Source of the DNA: Burkholderiales bacterium
Lineage (GTDB): Bacteria; Pseudomonadota; Gammaproteobacteria; Burkholderiales; SG8-39
Direction: 5' to 3'
DNA length: 55,448 nt
Assembly (NCBI GenBank): GCA_038903735.1
Contig: JBCKLP010000003.1
Location: 1-55,448 of the forward strand
Below are positions 44,327-54,759 of this stretch, piece by piece (positions within the stretch are counted from its first letter, which is position 1; each line of letters begins with the position of its first letter). A program made the translations under genes and the position numbers. Under the pieces are notes generated by a model that saw only the letters and a program-made list of their open reading frames with translations, did no database searches and was not told where the DNA came from.

Positions 44327-45343
44327 ATGGCAAAGATCGTATTAGGCATGTGGACCACGCACGGTCCGACCCTCGGAACGAGCGCCGAGCAATGGCCCAA
44401 CCGCATAGCGGCGGACAAGATGAACATCCACCCCTTCCGCCTGAAGGACTACACCTTCGACCAATTGGTCGAACTGCGTAAGGACGAGAACCTGGCTGCG
44501 CAGTGCACGTTGGAGGAGCGCCAGAAGCGCAAGGCGCGCTGCGATGCCGGCATCCAGATAATGGCCGACAAGTGGGAGGAGATGAAGCCCGATGTCTGCG
44601 TCATCATGGGCAACGATCAGCATGAAATGATGCTCACCGACCTGATGCCGGCCTTGACGGTGTTCTGTGGTGACACCATCTGGAACGAGCCGGTGCCCGA
44701 GCAGCACATACCCAAGATGCCGCCAGGCATACACGAGGCGAGCTGGTCGCACAATCCGCCGGAGCACACCGAGTATCCGGGCCTGCGCGAGCTCGCGGAG
44801 AAGATCACCCGAAAGGGCATCAAGAACAATTTCGACCTGGGCGTGTCCTACGAAATTCCGCGCAACCCGGATCATTACTCCAACGGCATTGGGCATGCGT
44901 TTGGATTTGTCTATCGCCGCATCATGCGCGACAAGGTGGTGCCCAATGTGCCGCTGATGGCCAATACCTTCTACCCGCCCAATCAGCCGACTGCCGCTCG
45001 CCTGTACAACTTCGGCGAACTGGTGGGCGAGGTGATCGATTCCTGGGACAAGGACCTGCGCGTGGCGGTGATCGGCTCGGGCGGCATGACGCATTTCTGT
45101 ATCGACGAGGAGTTCGATAACCGATTCTTCGACGCCTTCAGGAACAAGGATGCGAAGACGCTCACCGAAATCGACGACGGCTGGTTCCAGTCGGGCACCT
45201 CGGAGCTGAAGAACTGGATACACGCAGCCGGTTGCCTGTTCAATTCGGGCCTGAAGGGCGCGCCGACCGTGGTGGACTACGTTCCCTGCTACCGCTCGGC
45301 GGCCGGCACCGGCACGGCCAACGGCTTCGTGTACTGGACCTGA
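44327..45343 (+). CDS. LigB-superfamily extradiol dioxygenase, LigZ-like
   Basis: THGP, GNDQ, HAFGFVYRRIMRD, NTFYPPNQPT, SGGMTHF, DYVPCYRSAAGTG match LigZ as I recall it. Confidence 0.85.
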   Translation: MAKIVLGMWTTHGPTLGTSAEQWPNRIAADKMNIHPFRLKDYTFDQLVELRKDENLAAQCTLEERQKRKARCDAGIQIMADKWEEMKPDVCVIMGNDQHEMMLTDLMPALTVFCGDTIWNEPVPEQHIPKMPPGIHEASWSHNPPEHTEYPGLRELAEKITRKGIKNNFDLGVSYEIPRNPDHYSNGIGHAFGFVYRRIMRDKVVPNVPLMANTFYPPNQPTAARLYNFGELVGEVIDSWDKDLRVAVIGSGGMTHFCIDEEFDNRFFDAFRNKDAKTLTEIDDGWFQSGTSELKNWIHAAGCLFNSGLKGAPTVVDYVPCYRSAAGTGTANGFVYWT

Positions 45344-45464
45344 TACCTGTAATGGAATGGAAAATGGCCTGCAAGGCAGGGTATCTGGCTACTTTAATTA
45401 TTGAAAGTTCGTAATTACAGCGGAAGCCGGGCATCCGGCGGAAGCGTTCACAAGGAAGCCGAGA

Positions 45465-46778
45465 ATGAGCACCCAGAGCGAAAACGACACCCTGACCCAG
45501 GTCGGACCCGGCACCCCCATGGGCGAACTTATGCGCCAGTACTGGGTGCCGGCCGCAATGTCCTCGGAGCTGAAGGCCGATGGCGATCCGATGCGCCTGA
45601 TGCTGCTCGGCGAGAAGCTGGTGGCGTTTCGCGATTCCGAAGGCCGCATCGGTATTTTCGACCATCGCTGTCCGCACCGGCGGGCGTCACTCTTTTTCGG
45701 GCGTAATGAGCAGGGCGGCATCCGCTGCGTTTATCACGGCTGGAAGTTCGATATCACCGGCAAATGCCTGGAGACCCTGAACGTGCCCGATCCGGCGTTC
45801 AGGGATCGCGTCCACGCCAAAGCCTATCGCGTCGCCGAGCGGAACGGCCTGATCTACGCGTTCATGGGGGATGCCAAAGTGCTGCCGCCGCTCCCGGAGG
45901 TGGATCCGGCGCTGGCCGCTGCCGACGATGTGGATATCCAGTTTGAATTCCGCGAATGCAACTGGCTGCAGGCGGTGGAGGGGGAACTGGACACCAGCCA
46001 CGTGGGCATCATGCATTTTGGCGCGGTGAGCACGGCGGATTTTTCCGGGGACCGGCACCAGCAACACCTGGTCGCCAACCGTGCGCCGGAGTATCAGATC
46101 GAGGAAACCGAGTACGGCTATATCTACGGGGCGCACCGTCCGGCCGACGACGGGCAGCTCTACTGGCGCATCGGCCAGTTCCTGATGCCGTTCTGGACCA
46201 TGCCGCCGATCAACCATCTTTCGACCAATGTGCTGACGCGGGTGTACGTGCCGGTGGATGACCATCACACCATGGTGGTCGCCATCGTGAAAAAAGGCGC
46301 TTATCCGCCTGCGCGCTTGAAGCTGAACGAGTCCATTGTGGGCGCCTCGCAGAACTATCCCTACCTGCCCAACTCCACCGACTGGCTGGGCCGCTGGCGG
46401 CTGCGCCTCTCCCAGCGCAACGATTACGAAATCGACCGCGAGGTGCAGCGCACCCAAAGTTTCACCGGCATTGAGGGTGTGCAGATGCAGGACCAGGCGA
46501 TCCAGGAAGGCATGGGGCCGATTGCCGACCGCCCCGGCGAGCAGCTCGCGCCCAGCGACATCATGATCGTACGGGTGCGCCGCCTGCTGATGCGCGCGGC
46601 GCTTGACTTCAAGGAGAGCGGAAAATTGCCCGCCACCACCACGCGCCCGGACCTTTACCGGCAGACCCGCGGCGGCTTTTTTCTGGCCCCGCGCGAGCGC
46701 AACTGGCGCGAGGCCTATGCCGAAACCGTCAACAATTCGCCCTGGGAGACCGTGGGCAAAGAGGCAGCCACTGCATGA
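45465..46778 (+). CDS. Rieske oxygenase, phthalate 4,5-dioxygenase-like
   Basis: VGPGTPMGELMRQYW, CPHRRA...CVYHGW, EGELDTSHVGIMH, QDQAIQE. Confidence 0.92.
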   Translation: MSTQSENDTLTQVGPGTPMGELMRQYWVPAAMSSELKADGDPMRLMLLGEKLVAFRDSEGRIGIFDHRCPHRRASLFFGRNEQGGIRCVYHGWKFDITGKCLETLNVPDPAFRDRVHAKAYRVAERNGLIYAFMGDAKVLPPLPEVDPALAAADDVDIQFEFRECNWLQAVEGELDTSHVGIMHFGAVSTADFSGDRHQQHLVANRAPEYQIEETEYGYIYGAHRPADDGQLYWRIGQFLMPFWTMPPINHLSTNVLTRVYVPVDDHHTMVVAIVKKGAYPPARLKLNESIVGASQNYPYLPNSTDWLGRWRLRLSQRNDYEIDREVQRTQSFTGIEGVQMQDQAIQEGMGPIADRPGEQLAPSDIMIVRVRRLLMRAALDFKESGKLPATTTRPDLYRQTRGGFFLAPRERNWREAYAETVNNSPWETVGKEAATA

Positions 46779-47596
46779 GCGACAAGCTGAAACTCTATAC
46801 TGCACGCAACTCCATCTGCACCCAGAAAGTCTTCCTCACTCTCTACGAAAAAAATCTTGATTGGGACCAGAGCAACGTCGATCTGTTCAAGAACGAGCAG
46901 TACAAGCCGGAGTACCTGAAGCTCAATCCCAAGGGCGTGGTGCCCACGCTGGTGCATCAGGGCGTGCCTATTGTGGAATCCACGCTGATCTGCGAATACC
47001 TGGACGAGGTGTTCGCCGAGCCGCCGCTGCGGCCCGCGGACGCCGCCGGCCGCGCGCGCATGCGCCTGTGGAGCAAGGCCATCGACGAGGGCATCTTCGA
47101 GGCCACACGCGAGATCAGCTTTTCAGCCATGTTCCGCGAAGCCCTGCGCAATATGACGGAAGAGCAGCGCCAGACACGCTTTCGCAACGTCGGCGACCCG
47201 GAGCGGCGCGCGCGCTACATCTCCACCTACGAGGAGGGCGTCGAGTCCGTGTACGTGTTTCAGGGCATCGCCGCCTACGAGAAACTCTTCAAATCCATGG
47301 AAAGCGAACTTGCAGGCAAGGGGCCCTGGCTGGGTGGTGCGCAGTTTTCGCTCGGTGACATCAACCTCATGCCTTTCCTTGCGCGCCTGGAAAATCTCAA
47401 CCTCCTTGATGTCTGGACCAGCGAGCGCCCCGGCGTGCAGGCCTGGTGGGCGCGCGCCAAGGCGCGCCCGAGCTACGCCACTGCCATCGCCGGCAAGCTC
47501 ACGCCGGAGGACATGGCGGCGATGAAAGGCCACGGCAGCAAGATCAGGGACAGGGTGCGCGAGCGGCGCACGGAGTATCTGGCGCAGATCGCTTGA
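46775..47596 (+). CDS. Glutathione S-transferase family protein
   Basis: SICTQKV, LNPKGVVPTL, ESTLICEYLDE; ATGA overlap with the Rieske gene. Confidence 0.92.
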   Translation: MSDKLKLYTARNSICTQKVFLTLYEKNLDWDQSNVDLFKNEQYKPEYLKLNPKGVVPTLVHQGVPIVESTLICEYLDEVFAEPPLRPADAAGRARMRLWSKAIDEGIFEATREISFSAMFREALRNMTEEQRQTRFRNVGDPERRARYISTYEEGVESVYVFQGIAAYEKLFKSMESELAGKGPWLGGAQFSLGDINLMPFLARLENLNLLDVWTSERPGVQAWWARAKARPSYATAIAGKLTPEDMAAMKGHGSKIRDRVRERRTEYLAQIA

Positions 47597-47793: not shown

Positions 47794-47925
47794 TTGATCG
47801 CGCTCACCGCGTTCGCGATGAAAGGTGACGATGAGAAGATGCGCACCGCGGGCTGCGACGGCTACCTTGCCAAGCCCCACGGGCACCGCGAGCTGCTGGA
47901 GGCGGTGCGAGAGGTTCTCAAATGA
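47794..47925 (+). pseudogene. Receiver-domain (DivK-like) C-terminal remnant
   Basis: IALTAFAMKGDDEKMRTAGCDGYLAKP. Confidence 0.75.
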
Positions 47926-48008
47926 AATCGGCGCCGGCCCCCGGCCAGATACCGCGCCGGACGGTGATCGGCATTGCGCTGGTATTTGCGGCGAACCCAA
48001 TGACTCGC

Positions 48009-48395
48009 TCACGGCGTTCGGCGCGCCGCTGAAAGACTGCGTCGGCGGGCAACCGAGACTGCCCGCGAGCCAGCGAATCTCGGGCGCCGACGGCGCCTTC
48101 GCGGGGGTTCTGCTGGCGCTGCTCGAGGTGGCAGAGTTGTAGAGTTTTTACGACAGTGTCGACAAAGGCAAGGAGGGCGGGGTAGCACTGTTCCTGCGTT
48201 CGGGCTGGATCGCGGCGCGCTCACCCTTTGACGAAGCGGTGCAGGCGCGGTGCTGGAATGACTCGCCGATGTTCCGCGAGCATCTGCCCCAGGCGCATCG
48301 CCCTGATGCACGGCGGCGATGTGAATGTGGAAAGTGAACCGGGCTCGGGCAGCGTATTCCGCCTGCGCCTGCCGCTCGAACCCAAGGAGGTGTTA
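48009..48395 (+). pseudogene. Sensor histidine kinase remnants (Cache-like piece plus HATPase end)
   Basis: SQRISGADGAFAGVLLA...*SFYDSVD..EGGVALF and LMHGGDVNVESEPGSGSVFRLRLP. Confidence 0.65.
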
Positions 48396-48424
48396 TGGCG
48401 GCACGAAAACCCCCGCGCATCGCG

Positions 48425-49070
48425 TTACCCCTGCATGCCGGGTACCACGATTTCTATTTTGCGAGCGGTGAGCTGCTGAAAATGCTTGGGATTGAAAGTC
48501 AGGAAAACCCCGACCCCGGCTTTGGCGAGGCACTCCGCGATCAGCGCATCATAGGTCTGACCGCCTGCGATACCGGCATCGGCCGCCGCGAGCAAAAGCT
48601 GGCGATAACCCGGGCCGTCGATGGAGGCCACGCGGCGGCGCACCATGAAGTTCGCATCGAGCAGTGCAATCGCATCAGCGGGCGCCAAGCGATGCTGCGC
48701 CGGCAGGCGTGTGAGCACCGCGTATGCCTCGACCAGCGCAGGGCCCACCGACCAGCAATTCTAAATGTGAGCCGATCAGGCAGTTAAAGACCTTGATTTG
48801 ACGAACGAACTGGATTTCCGTCTGCGCGGGAATGACGGTAATTCAAAGGGTTAGCACCAGAACAAATTCACCCGCAACACACCGTGCCCCCCGTGCCTCC
48901 CGAGTTGAACAGGGGGCATCGCCACATTTAGAATTGCTGCCCACCGACACCATGCGCTCGCTCCGCTGAAGGCGCGTATTGAGTTCGGCCGCGGCACGCT
49001 CGTGAAATTCGTGCCAGCGACATACCGCCGCGATCATGCAGTTCGTATCGCAGGCAAAGGGCGACGCCAC
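48425..49070 (-). pseudogene. vapC: VapC/PIN toxin interrupted by a MITE
   Basis: CDTNCMIAA...MVSVG|PALVEAYAVLTR...YDALIA...LTFNPKHF; removing the element and one target copy gives a continuous 149-aa ORF. Confidence 0.88.
48753..48939. mobile_element. 187-bp MITE with 17-bp terminal inverted repeats and a 9-bp target-site duplication
   Basis: CAGCAATTCTAAATGTG...CACATTTAGAATTGCTG; CCCACCGAC at 48744-48752 and 48940-48948. Confidence 0.93.
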
Positions 49071-49076
49071 GTGGCG

Positions 49077-49340
49077 TCAGCGCCGCGAAGCACGCTCGGC
49101 ACGTATTGCCGCGAGCGTGCGTTCGACCGTTTTGCCGGCCAGCCGCGGCGTCGCTGCCGGCGCCTGGGCGACCAGCAGGCGGCCGCGCCGGGTAAGCGTG
49201 ACCGGAATCGGCGCGGGCTCGATCTCGATGCGCCCATCCTGGCAGCGCACCTCAACCGCCATCGCCGCCAGGATTTGGGCTTCGCGCCGGATTTCCTTCG
49301 GGATGACAATGCGTCCGGCGCTATCTATGGTCGTTTTCAT
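49077..49340 (-). CDS. vapB: AbrB/MazE/SpoVT-type antitoxin (VapB)
   Basis: MKTTIDSAGRIVIPKEIR...GRIEIEP. Confidence 0.88.
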   Translation of the reverse strand: MKTTIDSAGRIVIPKEIRREAQILAAMAVEVRCQDGRIEIEPAPIPVTLTRRGRLLVAQAPAATPRLAGKTVERTLAAIRAERASRR

Positions 49341-49432
49341 GGCACAAAATTTACCATAAAAACTGGCAAGGGCAGCGAATTTCGTCTACGAATTGCGTCT
49401 ACGCCTGCCGCTCGAACCCAAGGAGGTGAATC

Positions 49433-49560
49433 ATGCATGAAGGAAGAATACCGCGCGTTCTGGTGTTGGATGACGAAGATCCCAACCGCCGCCTGCTGCA
49501 GGCGCTGCTCGCGTGCCAGGGGTATCGCGTCGCCGCGGCACGCGCTGGAACGGCGGCGGC
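49433..49560 (+). pseudogene. Receiver-domain N-terminal remnant
   Basis: RVLVLDDEDPNRRLLQALLACQGYRVAAA following an AAGGAGG RBS; end is approximate. Confidence 0.65.
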
Positions 49561-49584
49561 TTTCCCGCGGGGCTCGCGGGCGAA

Positions 49585-49945
49585 GCGATACCGCTCGCGT
49601 GTCGCGCTTCGGCCAAGCAGAGGACGGCAGTCACCATGGGCGAGGACGGATGTCCCGAAGCGGCGTCATTGAAGTCGTCGTAATCCAGCGCGTGTGCCGA
49701 TGCGCCATTCACCAGCGCCGCGTCATGCAGTCCGAGGCGTTCGCTGCGTCCGATGAGCGTTCCCGTACCGCATGCGCCGCGATCCAGTGCATCGGCGACC
49801 AGAGTGTTTACCACCGGCTCCTGCGCGCCGGCAAGTGCGACGGCAAAGTAGTCGAGCAGGCACTGGCGAACCAGTTCAACGACGTCAGCAGGCAGCGATG
49901 CGGCCGTGAAGTGGCCGGTGCGGTGGATGATCTCCCGCGTTAGGC
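49585..49945 (-). pseudogene. MmgE/PrpD family N-terminal remnant
   Basis: CLLDYFAVALAG, AALVNGASAHALDYDD...GHPS, then truncated; boundaries approximate. Confidence 0.8.
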
Positions 49946-50058
49946 GCTGTAAACAAATAAACGTATCAACTTTTGATTTATCCAGCTCAGGCATTTAGCA
50001 GTGATATGAGACGTTTATTTATTTCCTGCGCCTTACGGGAAGCGCGGCTTCGTGAGAT

Positions 50059-52155
50059 TCACTCACCGCCTAGCCGTTGGCTTTCAAGGGCAGCGCTGTG
50101 GCCAGCACGCTGGATCAGTGTGTCCCAACCCGTATAACTGTCGGGCAAGCTGCCGGCAAGCTCCACGGATTTAGCCAGCGCACGCAGCCTTGTGCTGTTC
50201 CAGCCTTCGGTGCGCGCGGCAAGTTGCGCGAGCAGGGCGGCATCAGGTTGATATTGGGCCAGGTAAAGGCCGAGGATGGCGACGCGCTCGGTCGCGTTCG
50301 GTGGCGCGACTTCGAGCAGGGTGCCCAGCCGTCCGGGCTGCAGCAGGGCCGGATCGATCAGATCGACGCGGTTGGTGGCAGCAATGACGGCCACCTGCGC
50401 GTCAAGATCCAGGTCATCCAGCTCGGCGAGCAACTGATGCAGCACCCGCTCGGTGGTCCAGGTGCCGGTGCCGCGGCCGCGCACCGGGGCCACGGCATCC
50501 AGCTGGTCGAAAAAAATCACGCAGGGGGAGAGCTCGCGAGCCAGCTTGAAGACATGGCGCACGGCTTCTTCGGATTCGCCCAGCCATTTGCTGAACAGTT
50601 CCGGCCCGCCCACCATCACCAGGTTGACACCGGCTTCCTTCGCAACGGCCCGGGCCAGTTGCGATTTGCCGTTCCCTGAGGGGCCGTGCAGCAGCACGTT
50701 GTCGATGATGGGTATGCCCGCGCGCAAGGGCTCGATCAGCATCTCTGCGAGGCGCGCCTTGACTGCAGTGAGGCCCGCGATGCTCTCAAAGCCGCGGTCG
50801 GGAATGGTCACCAGCGTGGCGCGCGCAGCCGAGGGCCGGCTGCGCCGGCGCGCGGCAATGAAATCATCGCGCTTCACACGCAGGGTCTCGGGCTGCCATT
50901 GGCTGGGCGAGCCCGAGGCTGGCCGGTGGCGGCGCAGCGCGTGCATGCCGGCTTCGCGGCACAGCGCCATCAGGTCCGCGCCGACGAAACCCGGTGTATC
51001 GGCGGCGAGCTGCGGCAGATGCTCGCGCGCAAAGCGATCCAGCGGCATTTCTCGGGTGTGGATATTCAGGATCTGTTCGCGCCCGGCGGCATCCGGCGGG
51101 CCGATATACAACTCGTAATCGAAGCGCCCCGGCCGACGCAGTGCGGTATCCACCACCTCCAGGCGATTGGTGGTTGCCAATATCACCACGCCATCCACCT
51201 TGGTCAAGCCGTCCATCAGCGACAGCAACTGGGTCACCAGCCGGGTGTCGGCGTGCGAGCCGCTTTCGCCGCGCTTGGGCGCGATCGCATCCAACTCGTC
51301 AATGAAGATCACCGAGGGCGCGTGGTGCACCGCCTCGCCGAAAATGCGGCGCAGGTTGGCTTCGCTTTCGCCATAAGTGCTGCCGACGATCTCGGGGCCG
51401 TTGATGTGAAAAAACTGCGCGTTGACTTCGTTGGCGGTGGCGCGCGCCAGCAGCGTCTTGCCGGTGCCGGGAGGCCCGTAGAGAATCACGCCGCGCACCG
51501 GCGGTATGCCCACCTGCCGGTAGATGCCGGGAAACTGCAGCGGCAGTTGCACCGTTTCCTTCACCATGGTGATTTCGCGCTCGAGGCCGCCCAGTTCGGC
51601 GAAGCTCACCTCCAGCGCCACATGCCCTTTGAAACCGTCCGGCGCGGTATCGAGCACCACATCGGTATTCTCATCCACCACGCCGGCGGAGGGTTGGACT
51701 TCCACCACCTGAAACAAAGTGCCCGCGACCGAGTGATGGAAATGCAGGAAGAGAAGCGCGCCCTTGGTGACCGGGCAATGCTGCTCAACCATCTCCTCCT
51801 TCAGGTGCTCCTCAATGTGATGCGCCGAGGTGGCGCCAAGGTCCACTGCCGGTTGCAGCCTGACTTTTTTGACCGGGGGCGCCTGCGGCTCGGGCTCCAG
51901 TTCCACGCTGGAGTACAGGCGCACACCCAGGGCCTGGCGCTGGAAGCGGTCCAGGCGCACTTCGCCACTGCCGGTGTCGTCGGCGACAGGCTCATCGACG
52001 CGAACCAGAATTTCGCGCTGAAAAGTCATCACGCGCAGGAGGTCGCCCGGCTTGACCCCGTGCTTCTGCATCAGCGCCGGATCGATGGAAGCGAATGAGG
52101 CGCTGCTGGCGGCGTATTCGCGCAGCGAAGGGGCCACGCGCAGTTCAATGCTCAT
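50059..52155 (-). CDS. Cdc48/VAT-like double AAA+ ATPase
   Basis: N-domain, D1 GPPGTGKT / IFIDELD / RRPGRFD, D2 GPSGNGKS / IFFDQLD / LQPGRL, SKWLGESE; ATG at 52155. Confidence 0.9.
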   Translation of the reverse strand: MSIELRVAPSLREYAASSASFASIDPALMQKHGVKPGDLLRVMTFQREILVRVDEPVADDTGSGEVRLDRFQRQALGVRLYSSVELEPEPQAPPVKKVRLQPAVDLGATSAHHIEEHLKEEMVEQHCPVTKGALLFLHFHHSVAGTLFQVVEVQPSAGVVDENTDVVLDTAPDGFKGHVALEVSFAELGGLEREITMVKETVQLPLQFPGIYRQVGIPPVRGVILYGPPGTGKTLLARATANEVNAQFFHINGPEIVGSTYGESEANLRRIFGEAVHHAPSVIFIDELDAIAPKRGESGSHADTRLVTQLLSLMDGLTKVDGVVILATTNRLEVVDTALRRPGRFDYELYIGPPDAAGREQILNIHTREMPLDRFAREHLPQLAADTPGFVGADLMALCREAGMHALRRHRPASGSPSQWQPETLRVKRDDFIAARRRSRPSAARATLVTIPDRGFESIAGLTAVKARLAEMLIEPLRAGIPIIDNVLLHGPSGNGKSQLARAVAKEAGVNLVMVGGPELFSKWLGESEEAVRHVFKLARELSPCVIFFDQLDAVAPVRGRGTGTWTTERVLHQLLAELDDLDLDAQVAVIAATNRVDLIDPALLQPGRLGTLLEVAPPNATERVAILGLYLAQYQPDAALLAQLAARTEGWNSTRLRALAKSVELAGSLPDSYTGWDTLIQRAGHSAALESQRLGGE

Positions 52156-52171
52156 GTCATGAGTCCTTGCA

Positions 52172-53260
52172 TCAGGCCGGATGCGCAGCGCGGTACTCGG
52201 GGCAGGGCTGCAGTTCCTCAAAACCCGATTGCCGGTCCACGCCGGTGGTGTGCACCAGGTTGCGCTCCATGCAAACCAGGCGCACCGGCGCTGATCCGGT
52301 ATTCACATGACGGAACACCACGCCCTCGGGAAAGGTGGGCAGGGTCATCACATCGCCCGCCTTCCAGACGTGGCGCACGCCGTCCAGTTCGGTGTAACCC
52401 TCGCCGTCGGTGATGTAGAACACGACATCGCCGCCATGTCGCTGCACACCGCTGCGGCTGCCGGGCGGAATTTCCTGGCGGTAGAAGATCTGGGTCTGCA
52501 CTGCGGTATAGGCAATGCAGGGGTGGAGGTACCACTGCATCCTGCCGTGGGCATTGAGTTCCCAGGGAAGCTCGTCGCCGCGTATCAGGAAGGTGGTCTG
52601 TTTCAGGCGTTCGCGCTGGATGTCGCGCAGTTCCATCAAGCGGTCAAAGAGATTCACATTGGCGAGTTCATCGGGCGAGGTCACCAGCGGCACCTGCTCG
52701 CCGCTGACGGTGGCCTTCCATTCCTTGCGCACCTGCGCGGCCTGTTGACCCTGTCCGCCCGCGCCACGCAGCTCGGGCATTACGGACACCTGGTCGATGG
52801 CATTGGCAATGGTGCGTGCCACCAGCATGTCGCGAAAGGCAACCCAGCGGCAGCCCTTGGCGATATCCCGGTTCCAGTGCTGGTGGCTGGAACCGCCCGG
52901 CTTGATCGGCAGGAGCAGCAGGTCACCCGCCTGCCATTCGAGAATCTCGTCATCCGTCTCGGTACGGCCGTGGCCTTCGAGCACGTAGATAATGATGCCG
53001 CCCTGATGGCGATGGCGCCCGGACTGGTTCTTCACCAGGTGCTCGAACACCGCCCAGCTGCTCACCGCGGTGTCCTCGATGAAGGGGATCAGGTAATACT
53101 TGAGAAAGCCCTGGCGTGATGCCTGATACTCCAACTCGTCGCCGCGGATGAGAACCTTGCCATTTTTCTCGCGGTCGCTCCATTGCTTGTAGTAGCGCAT
53201 CACCTTTTCATAGGTGGTGTTCTGCAGTGCGTCGAGGTCTTTTACGCGTTCGCGTTCCAT
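52172..53260 (-). CDS. Bicupin protein (gentisate dioxygenase-like architecture)
   Basis: SGRHRH...YVLEGHG...W..GD...HQHWN and a second repeat SGVQRH...W..GD...FRHVN. Confidence 0.82.
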   Translation of the reverse strand: MERERVKDLDALQNTTYEKVMRYYKQWSDREKNGKVLIRGDELEYQASRQGFLKYYLIPFIEDTAVSSWAVFEHLVKNQSGRHRHQGGIIIYVLEGHGRTETDDEILEWQAGDLLLLPIKPGGSSHQHWNRDIAKGCRWVAFRDMLVARTIANAIDQVSVMPELRGAGGQGQQAAQVRKEWKATVSGEQVPLVTSPDELANVNLFDRLMELRDIQRERLKQTTFLIRGDELPWELNAHGRMQWYLHPCIAYTAVQTQIFYRQEIPPGSRSGVQRHGGDVVFYITDGEGYTELDGVRHVWKAGDVMTLPTFPEGVVFRHVNTGSAPVRLVCMERNLVHTTGVDRQSGFEELQPCPEYRAAHPA

Positions 53261-53478
53261 GCTGGGCTTTCAGGTGATAACTGACTGTCGCATACCGCGA
53301 TCAAGGGCGACAACTGCAGTGAATGTCAGGCTGATATTTCTGTCGAACCCCGGCGTGCGACCGTAGTTGTTTCTTGCGGGTAATTCACGAAGGTCCAAAG
53401 TATAGGATGATTACTGCTTGATCCGCGCCGTTCGGGTTGCAAACCGTTCGGCGCTTGCATTTTAAGCAAAGGAATTCC

Positions 53479-54759
53479 ATGTCCCGGCTGGCGAGCATCT
53501 ACTCCGATTTCAAGATTCCACCGCTGATCAAACGCAATACCATACTGTTCGCGTTGTCCCAATCGTTCAGCGGCGCCGGCATGCAATTCGCCTACGGGCT
53601 GGGTCCCCTGATGGTTCTTTCCCTGACCGGTTCGGCTTCCCTGGCAGGGCTGTCGGTGGGGCTGATCGGGCTTTCTCGCTTTCTCGCCTCCTATCCGGTG
53701 GGCAAGATCACCGATGCATACGGGCGCAAGCCCGGCATTATTTTCGGCCTGAGCCTGGCGCTGATTGGCGGTCTCATCTGCGGCGCATCGATGAGCTTTT
53801 CCAGCATCTGGGTATTCATCCTGGGAATGACGATTTTCGGCATGGGCATGAGCGGCGTGCAGCAGTTGCGCGTGGCGGCGACCGACATGTATCCGCATTT
53901 TCACCGCGGCCAGGCGCTGGGCTATCTTGCACTGGGCGCACTGGTCGGACTGATTTACAGCCCGCTCATCATCACCGGATCCGAGAAATTTGCACTGGCC
54001 AATGGTTACGAACCCCTGGCGCTGCCATGGTTCCTGCTGCCCGTCATGATCATTGCAAGCATGGCCATGGTGTATTTCGTGCACCCCGATCCCAAGGAGA
54101 TCGGCATGAATCTCGGCCGCTATTATCCGGGCTACACGCCGCCGCCACGGGCAAAACCGGCCGGAGGGGACGAGAAATTCAGCGCCAGGGGCTTGATGCG
54201 CCATGTTCCCACGCGCATGGCGATCATTTCCAATGCGGCGGCCCAGGGCAATATGTCGATCGTCATGGTATTGACCTCGCTGGTCCTCGCGCATCATGGA
54301 TCCTCCCTCGGGGCGATCGCCTTCTCGCACATGTTTCATGCCGCGGGCATGTTCGCCTTCACCATCCCCCTTGGCAAGCTCGCTGACCGGCTGGGTCGCG
54401 AGATGGTCATGTATCCCGGCGTCTTGGTGTCGCTGGTGGGGGCAATACTGGTAGCCTTCACCGACGGCTCCTACGTGTTCGTGACACTGGGAACCTTTCT
54501 GGTCGGCCTGGGCTGGGCGGCCGCCAACGTGGCAGCGACCGCGATGATTGCCGATCATGTCGAGACCGACCAGCGCGGCCGCGCCATCGGCGTCAATGAA
54601 AGCTGTGCCGGGGCGATCAATGTGCTGATGGCGCTGGTGACCGGGCCCATATTGCAGTGGTCCGGACTGCCCATGACGGGCCTGGTGGCGGTGCTGGTGG
54701 CGCTGCCGCCCCTGGTGATGTGGGTGGAGCTTCAGGTGCGCGCGCGCAAGGCCCTGTAG
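53479..54759 (+). CDS. MFS transporter
   Basis: GKITDAYGRK and GKLADRLGRE motif A; AAGGA RBS before ATG 53479. Confidence 0.9.
   Translation: MSRLASIYSDFKIPPLIKRNTILFALSQSFSGAGMQFAYGLGPLMVLSLTGSASLAGLSVGLIGLSRFLASYPVGKITDAYGRKPGIIFGLSLALIGGLICGASMSFSSIWVFILGMTIFGMGMSGVQQLRVAATDMYPHFHRGQALGYLALGALVGLIYSPLIITGSEKFALANGYEPLALPWFLLPVMIIASMAMVYFVHPDPKEIGMNLGRYYPGYTPPPRAKPAGGDEKFSARGLMRHVPTRMAIISNAAAQGNMSIVMVLTSLVLAHHGSSLGAIAFSHMFHAAGMFAFTIPLGKLADRLGREMVMYPGVLVSLVGAILVAFTDGSYVFVTLGTFLVGLGWAAANVAATAMIADHVETDQRGRAIGVNESCAGAINVLMALVTGPILQWSGLPMTGLVAVLVALPPLVMWVELQVRARKAL

Follow-up and report, generated by a model that had tools for sequence, protein, structure and literature searches.

Why would a bacterium keep, beside a cupin gene, a two-ring ATPase of the Cdc48 lineage in which the catalytic glutamate of the second ring is replaced by glutamine? 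The question is raised by a gene pair on the complementary (−) strand of a 55,448-nucleotide stretch of DNA from a Burkholderiales bacterium of lineage SG8-39 (assembly GCA_038903735.1, contig JBCKLP010000003.1, positions 1 to 55,448), hereafter the window. The upstream gene (52172–53260, 362 aa) encodes a bicupin, in which an alpha domain with a three-histidine site is fused to a beta domain without one; the downstream gene (50059–52155, 698 aa) encodes an AAA+ ATPase with the N-D1-D2 architecture of Cdc48 and VAT. A first-pass annotation made from the letters of the window had read the pair as a dedicated, D1-driven chaperone or metal-insertion activase together with its cupin enzyme. The data presented here show that the glutamine is a family-wide trait and that a cupin gene is the usual neighbor of the genes that encode it; a machine dedicated to activating the cupin would account for both.

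Layout of the operon

The bicupin stop and the ATPase start codon (ATG at 52155) are separated by 16 nt (52156–52171), and an AAGGA motif resembling a ribosome-binding site lies inside this gap, 8 nt before the ATG (52164–52168). The ATPase frame runs to its stop at 50059. A promoter and terminator scan of the stretch found nothing above chance level. D1 contains a Walker A motif, GPPGTGKT (residues 227–234, 51454–51477), a Walker B motif, IFIDE (residues 283–287, 51295–51309), in which E287 is invariant, and the motifs TTNR and RRPGRFD. D2 contains a Walker A motif, GPSGNGKS (residues 491–498, 50662–50685), with an invariant K497, the motif ATNR, and a pore-loop-1 tryptophan, W524, within KWLGE (50584–50586). 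Two further positions of D2 are altered: Q551 (codon CAG, 50503–50505) replaces the catalytic glutamate in the Walker B motif IFFDQ, and Q606 (codon CAG, 50338–50340) occupies the first arginine-finger position in LLQPGRLG. The intergenic gap with its AAGGA motif, and a D2 that combines both departures with an intact Walker A motif and KWLGE loop, had been described in the first pass and are confirmed on the sequence.

The D2 glutamine as a family trait

Among the 120 best homologs of the ATPase, the D2 Walker B motif ends in DQ in 117, in DP in one, and in DE in one, the remaining sequence being truncated; DQ persists down to 42% identity, and the lone DE protein is placed outside the DQ clade. 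A tree of the D1-D2 region was built from 161 proteins (600–830 aa representatives, 28 proteins comprising the query and 27 homologs, and the locus proteins). All 71 DQ sequences fall within a single 77-member clade (FastTree support 0.942) that contains no DE sequence; the remaining six members carry EQ, DN (twice), DP, DD, and DH, giving glutamine in 72 of 77. An IQ-TREE analysis of the 77 members with 25 outgroup rows, from which the trait columns had been removed, returned an approximate likelihood ratio (SH-aLRT) support of 93, slightly under the 95 mark. The loss of the glutamate in the DQ clade thus has one origin on the tree, and the prediction that DQ would be kept in homologs holds. 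D2 glutamate loss has also occurred elsewhere, since 7 of 84 proteins outside the clade lack DE. A second, independent group with altered D2 Walker B motifs (DT, DG, DN, EG, EQ) comprises L177, P0313, P0321, P0335, P0366, P0371, and P0377; L177 has no cupin neighbor.

Strain-specific decay or a sequencing error might be suspected in an assembly that is 60.8% complete, with gene fragments directly downstream of the ATPase. Both are effectively ruled out, because DQ is family-wide and both glutamine codons are used: among 37 distinct DQ genes the codon is CAG in 31 and CAA in 6. This tally speaks to synonymous variation only, because 11 of the 37 genes were found with a pattern that demands glutamine (a metagenome scan in which Cdc48-type genes accounted for 11 of 119 loci, the rest being off-target). 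Two sets of DNA reads cover the stretch in pieces only, for the most part from relatives; in one relative, a contig at approximately 90% identity spans the Q551 codon, with no change there among the differences listed, but as these reads come from other genomes the contig is not counted as evidence.

The ATPase is the sole Cdc48-like gene found in the source assembly (G000), which belongs to the same genus as G002 and G004 (ATPase loci L005 and L004, respectively). Wider genome sets yielded few relatives: with three to five candidates scored per genome, no DQ member other than that of G000 was found in the window's class (300 genomes, with three matches, all DE), and none was found in the phylum of G362 (201 genomes, with four matches, three DE and one DT). 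A literature search that covered titles and the beginnings of abstracts, with most subscription papers outside its coverage, returned no description of the DQ family.

Linkage between the ATPase and the cupin

Distances from ATPase to cupin were measured from one open frame to the other, cupins being recognized by a 40-bit profile cut-off, and a DQ gene was treated as scorable when at least 900 bp were available on both flanks (27 of 37). A cupin lies within approximately 300 bp of 23 of these 27 genes (on the same strand in 20) and within 1.5 kb of 24; among the ten genes with shorter flanks, five adjoin a cupin. None of the 11 non-DQ Cdc48 genes, with flanks of approximately 1–1.5 kb, has a cupin neighbor. 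The cupin–ATPase link spans phyla and outlasts fusion, splitting, and reordering of the genes.

Co-occurrence was counted across genomes, with scoring limited to the few best candidates in each genome and with related genomes that are not independent of one another. Among 61 relatives, the DQ ATPase is present in eight and the cupin in nine, including all eight. Among 251 genomes from the same phylum as G361 (a Chloroflexi record), the ATPase is present in seven and the cupin, at 1e-15, in six, all within the seven; the seventh genome has 10 weaker cupin matches. Among 301 genomes from the class to which G363, a Rhizobiales record, belongs, one ATPase and one cupin were recovered, both in the centre genome. 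Cupin matches often outnumber ATPases (12 vs. 2 in G005, 7 vs. 1 in G002). The ATPase and alpha-cupin trees nearly coincide (21 pairs, Spearman 0.84), and the two ATPases of G005 lie on different branches, each paired with a cupin type of its own. Gene order, co-occurrence across genomes, and the agreement of the trees together bear out the expectation that the cupin linkage would be conserved in homologs.

A very tight operon, gene orders in which the ATPase lies between two cupin subunit genes (beta-ATPase-alpha, in L032 and L098), and an alpha-domain identity that follows ATPase identity would all be expected if ATPase and cupin formed one ATP-coupled enzyme, with the ring driving a step of each catalytic cycle in a chelatase-like manner. 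We consider such coupling quite improbable: most cupin paralogs are distant from the single ATPase gene, and no ATPase–cupin fusion was seen, in searches that did not extend to longer forms, except the frameshifted-looking P0190. This 589-aa record joins a bicupin and CDC48_N with scrambled stretches, and probably reflects read-through at a frameshift within the same operon, not a genuine fusion.

Several loci contain further genes of interest. At L186 (G391:C49:23500-40500), the DQ ATPase has six same-strand cupin frames around it. UbiD-family genes occur within approximately 5 kb of DQ ATPases in L008 (as a tandem pair), L012, L017, L098, L185, and L187. TctC, UbiD, Rieske, amidohydrolase, and NicO neighbors are variable and typical of such catabolic genomes; the recurrence of these families has no background control, and so a substrate was not assigned from the UbiD, Rieske, TctC, or amidohydrolase neighbors. 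The record containing L006 is titled Bordetella parapertussis; the same gene is present in G001 of the window's genus, and L006 is probably a mislabeled metagenome-assembled genome.

The cupin partner

The alpha domain of the bicupin (approximately residues 11–163, 52772–53230) carries W69, H83, H85, Q86, H126, and H128, of which H83-x-H85…H126 form the predicted metal site; in the beta domain (approximately residues 199–356, 52193–52666), the first histidine is replaced and the corresponding stretch reads Q273-x-H275…H318. A full HxH…H site is thus confined to the first cupin, as previously annotated. Both states are conserved: H83 and H85 in 110 of 110 sequences, H126 and H128 in 109, and Q273 in 108. 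Residues W69, H83, H85, H126, and H128 align to W104, H119, H121, H160, and H162 of salicylate and gentisate 1,2-dioxygenases (SDO and GDO), in which the three histidines (H119, H121, and H160) bind iron. The surrounding pocket differs: GDO R127 is replaced by I91 (I or L in 110 of 110), D174 by A141 (A or G in 110 of 110), and Q108 by E73; SDO R83 lies beyond the aligned stretch, with the conserved R49 as a candidate counterpart only. R127 and D174 are listed among the dioxygenase pocket residues (PMC13280823, partial text).

Scores against the dioxygenase family models are far under the cut-offs (33.9 vs. 442.1 for TIGR02272; 41.3 vs. 650 for NF049978), and identity to salicylate and gentisate dioxygenases is 13–18%. 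The bicupin was modeled with a mean predicted local distance difference test score (pLDDT) of 91.9; these dioxygenases top both structure searches, with the longest alignments (Z 21.9, root-mean-square deviation 4.9, 297 residues aligned). The searches single out no cupin function, as the top Z values are tied with those of other bicupins. From its residues, the cupin resembles a GDO-type protein in its predicted metal site and would act on a different substrate from that of the gentisate and salicylate dioxygenases, as R127 and D174 are lost and the score is far under the GDO cut-off; the substrate is probably an organic catabolite. In more distant loci, the two domains are encoded by separate genes, which stand in either order or flank the ATPase, and on the deepest branches the cupins are more divergent but match the same profile.

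The missing substrate residues R127 and D174 bear on a further possibility, namely that the cupin is a ligand- or metal-sensing adaptor on the ATPase N-domain, comparable to Cdc48 cofactors or to CbbO, and brings other catabolic enzymes, for example those of the UbiD, Rieske, or amidohydrolase families, to the ring. Many cupin paralogs per ATPase would suit such a role, as would the recurrence of UbiD, Rieske/LigXa, and Amidohydro_2 genes near DQ loci and the precedent of CbbQ, which requires an adaptor (PMC5437159, partial text). These neighbor families are, however, common in such genomes in any case, and in the window, too, Rieske, TctC, and hydrolase genes occur at a distance from the pair; no neighbor family is as constant as the cupin, and the alpha domain retains an enzyme-like three-histidine site along with H128 and W69. 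An adaptor role therefore seems to us unlikely.

Catalytic residues and pore loops of the two rings

Within the DQ clade, the Walker A lysine, Walker B DE, sensor 1 asparagine, and both arginine fingers of D1 are each present in 77 of 77 members. The nucleotide-binding set of D2 is also largely retained (lysine 77/77, aspartate 76/77, sensor asparagine 66/77, second arginine 77/77), N595 being kept in 114 of 119 sequences, and W524 is present in 77 of 77. By the criteria for a canonical Cdc48 D2, namely an hhhhDE Walker B motif and an arginine finger at the position of p97 R635 (PMC5468458, partial text), Q551 and Q606 both depart. The aspartate of GR(F/L)D in D2 is glycine in 71 of 77 members, and the first arginine finger is R in 55, Q in 18, and another residue in four. 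Of the 62 homologs at ≥55% identity, 52 have Q at this first finger; of the 56 below 55%, none does, and 55 have R. The LQPGR departure described in the first pass is thus real here and in the close subclade without being a feature of the family; it is a later, subclade change.

The designation of D1 as canonical can likewise be kept in part: it holds for the catalytic motifs only, because the D1 pore loop reads S259-T260-Y261-G where VAT has K-Y-Y-G. Of the aromatic-hydrophobic-glycine loops that VAT-type unfoldases carry in both rings, the ATPase lacks that of D1 and has that of D2 (K-W-L-G). The aromatic pore motif is reported for both rings of VAT, with none in D1 of p97 and Rix7 and none in D2 of NSF (PMC6355894, partial text). 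Judged by these motifs, the DQ family resembles p97 in its pore loops but has the catalytic pattern reversed. A D1-driven motor is plausible, albeit one whose D1 is without the canonical gripping loop and whose D2 retains the tryptophan.

Might D2 nevertheless still be a working motor, through glutamine-tolerant chemistry or a partner-supplied residue, making the ATPase a conventional processive unfoldase for the recycling of cupins? K497, N595, R609, and W524 are kept, the glutamine is far more conserved (72/77) than plain loss of function would demand, and the two rings are about equally conserved (mean identity 0.62 for D2 vs. 0.68 for D1). Set against this, the E-to-Q change is the standard block to hydrolysis, used as such in Cpa E566Q (PMC6017811, partial text); the clade tolerates N, D, H, and P at this position and never E; and the subclade is also without the first arginine finger. 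We regard an active D2 as distinctly unlikely.

Placement within the Cdc48 lineage

The ATPase matches Pfam CDC48_N at E 3.9e-8 (33.8 bits, slightly below the 35.1 cut-off), followed by two AAA stretches, and has an Atlas CDC48_N/CDC48_2 score of 0.94. Its closest solved relatives by sequence are VAT and p97 (best match E 3e-151), and the best fold matches of the monomer model (pLDDT 89.9) are to p97. Against the whole-protein cut-off of TIGR01243 it scores 567.1 bits vs. the 802.65 specified. The hydrophobic–tyrosine–any residue (HbYX) tail is absent from the ATPase, which ends in RLGGE, and a penultimate tyrosine occurs in 1 of 77 clade members. The ATPase therefore belongs to the Cdc48 lineage yet departs from canonical Cdc48 and VAT in D2 catalysis, in the HbYX tail, and in whole-protein score.

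A bacterial 20S alpha gene (TIGR03691) was found in none of five relatives searched, a set that did not include G000 itself. Because the HbYX tail is missing and no 20S alpha gene occurs in any of the five, a proteasome role for the ATPase is unlikely. A single PF00227 match in three of five Chloroflexi-phylum DQ genomes might, along with the kinship to VAT and p97 and the DQ genes that lie away from cupins, be read as the mark of a chaperone for general proteostasis, or of a proteasome partner, that simply travels with catabolic islands. The PF00227 matches are single-copy and probably HslV, however, and the cupin adjacency that survives reordering across phyla is seen for none of the 11 non-DQ Cdc48 genes. 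Together with the missing 20S alpha gene and HbYX tail, this makes a general chaperone very unlikely.

N-domain histidines

Residues 110–142 of the ATPase N-domain (51730–51828) contain seven histidines in 33 positions (binomial p ~6e-6, for an assumed 2.2% histidine and a window picked post hoc), among them H112, H113, H117, H138, H140, and H141. The histidine richness noted in the first pass is real for this protein and its close subclade, the six named residues being present in 57–61 of 61 close homologs; the full six-residue cluster is not family-wide, and in distant homologs only H112 and H117 persist (38/56). Of the 77 clade members, 43 combine H112 and H117 with H277 and H278 of D1, and this co-occurrence hints at a site between N-domain and D1. 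H112, H117, and H277 are all missing from 25 of the 77, several of which adjoin cupins. Co-variation of the N-domain and D1 histidines offers a lead only: there are four and five changes on the tree, and for the single independent pair the sign test gives p = 1.

These residues are the basis for proposing a metal-insertion chaperone, in which H112 and H117 with H277 and H278 of D1, plus H113, H138, H140, and H141, would pass Fe, Ni, or Co to the apo-cupin. In addition to the conserved histidines, a gene of the Ni/Co transporter family NicO (PF03824) lies 0.05–1.4 kb downstream of the DQ ATPase in three loci (L012:3457-4266, L013:2553-3362, L015:9466-10275). The three loci are close relatives, though, and the co-variation reduces to its single independent pair. 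On the histidine evidence alone, metal insertion is not a family-wide job, because 25 of 77 members are without H112, H117, and H277. GDO-type three-histidine enzymes, moreover, are not generally known to need an ATPase of their own for activity. We accordingly think metal insertion, as a role in its own right, unlikely. An AMP-binding_C_2 ligase gene is also found downstream of the DQ ATPase in the same subclade as the NicO loci.

Proposed mechanism

Because the D2 glutamine is family-wide and a cupin is the usual neighbor, a dedicated activating machine appears likely. With a probability of about 0.5, we propose that the ATPase is a cupin-dedicated activase in which D1 hydrolysis opens and resets, or assembles, the cupin. 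D2 would bind ATP, as K497, D550, N595, and R609 are kept, and would hydrolyze little of it, so that the ATP-loaded D2 may serve as a stable ring or clamp, in which the tryptophan loop could hold an engaged peptide. Hydrolysis in D1 would drive a swing of the N-domain and at most partial threading, in the manner of NSF. In p97 the N-domain swing is powered by D1 hydrolysis (PMC5468458, section 6, partial text), and NSF remodels its substrates through the N-domain and partial D1 threading (PMC6355894, partial text). The alpha/beta cupin would thereby be loosened, a dead-end ligand or spent metal would leave, and the active site would be reloaded; a single ATPase might serve several cupin paralogs in trans.

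Several observations weigh against this proposal. Lysine is absent from the D1 pore loop in all 119 sequences, and an aromatic residue is found at the canonical position in 25 of them, one position later in 77, and at neither in 17; the invariant gripping tryptophan sits instead in the supposedly inactive D2, the reverse of NSF. D2 hydrolysis is required for unfolding by p97/Cdc48 and for release by Drg1. Three of the 27 scorable DQ genes (L004, L005, and L178) have no cupin inside the flanks covered, though cupins occur elsewhere in their genomes, and G012 (99% complete) is without a DQ ATPase but carries a single distant cupin. Matching trees and adjacency are also explicable by co-transfer of neighboring genes, and the kin compared are not independent of one another. 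Finally, these data do not single out the servicing step, which could be reactivation, assembly, or metal loading.

A bolder form of the proposal would make the ATPase a metalloenzyme maturase, the first in the Cdc48 family, in which D1 works the H112/H117/H277/H278 site against a permanently ATP-clamped D2 to bring about metal exchange or product release in an entire paralog family of alpha/beta cupin oxygenases that would be inactive in its absence. Such a maturase would explain a cupin family confined to motor-carrying genomes; we put it forward tentatively, as a possibility with the odds against it.

Other genes in the window

A divergent major facilitator superfamily (MFS) transporter gene (53437–54759, +) lies upstream of the bicupin–ATPase operon and is kept there within the genus (L004, L005, L006, L007, L010), even where the cupin has moved away (L004, L005). 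Directly downstream of the ATPase is an MmgE/PrpD gene fragment (49431–49994, −), with a match of only approximately 125 residues; the remainder of the 467-residue MmgE/PrpD paralog has no match within the window. It is followed at 48425–49340 (−) by an AbrB/MazE-type antitoxin (87 aa) and then a short open reading frame, together a vapBC-like pair; the short frame looks by eye like a PIN-domain toxin and has no Pfam match. Kinase- and receiver-like fragments, also identified by eye and without Pfam matches, lie beside this pair (47825–48479). A LigB-like dioxygenase, a LigXa-like Rieske oxygenase, and a glutathione S-transferase are encoded in one run (44327–47596, +); LigXa/Rieske genes are also found near DQ loci L077, L183, L184, L185, and L186.

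Significance and comparison with known systems

The E-to-Q substitution is the laboratory off-switch in motors where D2 does the pulling (p97/Cdc48, Drg1); here, it has been fixed naturally. A natural D2-glutamine clade that retains the gripping D2 tryptophan constitutes a ready-made means of testing how far a D1 ring and N-domain can work by themselves, an open question for type II AAA+ motors. If the activase proposal is true, it would give a specific, proteasome-independent role to one group of the sporadic bacterial Cdc48 homologs. It would also offer a handle on a large uncharacterized cupin family of uncultured Betaproteobacteria, Chloroflexota, and Binatota (the last by Atlas clusters), and cupins of the DQ-linked family may need the ATPase co-expressed for activity.

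With VAT, archaeal Cdc48, and p97 (PDB 5g4f, 5g4g, 5vc7, 7l5w; TIGR01243), the ATPase shares the N-D1-D2 architecture, the D1 catalytic motifs, and the K-W-h-G loop of D2. Unlike these proteins, it has a D2 glutamine, a glutamine finger in its subclade, a D1 loop without K-Y, no HbYX tail, and a cupin partner. In NSF/Sec18, a type II AAA+ protein, D2 is weakly active and structural. The N-domain movement and partial D1 threading proposed here would be analogous to those of NSF (PMC6355894, partial text); in contrast, the aromatic pore motif of NSF is in D1 with none in D2, and NSF is eukaryotic with SNARE clients.

Sporadic Cdc48 homologs in other bacteria fall inside the archaeal cluster (PMC6017811, partial text). 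The actinobacterial Cdc48-like protein Cpa is, like the DQ ATPase, a bacterial N-D1-D2 homolog encoded in an operon, and as described in the same paper it differs in two respects: sensor asparagine and arginine finger are found only in its D2, whereas D1 is the complete module here, and there is an interaction between Cpa and the 20S proteasome (PMC6017811), whose alpha gene was found in none of the five relatives searched in this study. Cpa is not among the proteins from which the trees were built here.

The cupin shares with the 1,2-dioxygenases of gentisate and salicylate (PDB 2phd, 3bu7; TIGR02272) a bicupin fold with one full three-histidine site, located in the N-terminal domain; unlike them, it is without equivalents of R127 and D174, and its alpha and beta parts are often encoded by separate genes. 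In its proposed function, the ATPase would most resemble the Rubisco activases (CbbX/red-type Rca and CbbQO), AAA+ rings that are each dedicated to one enzyme family and that reopen blocked active sites (PMC5437159, partial text); the gene linkage to and co-occurrence with one client family that characterize this class are both found for the ATPase. The Rubisco activases differ in being single-ring proteins of other clades, CbbQ being MoxR-type with a VWA adaptor, and the proposed client here is a cupin. By these comparisons, the ATPase belongs to an old natural clade that pairs a D2 glutamine with a D2 tryptophan, a relative within the Cdc48 lineage that may be likened in function to the AAA+ activases.

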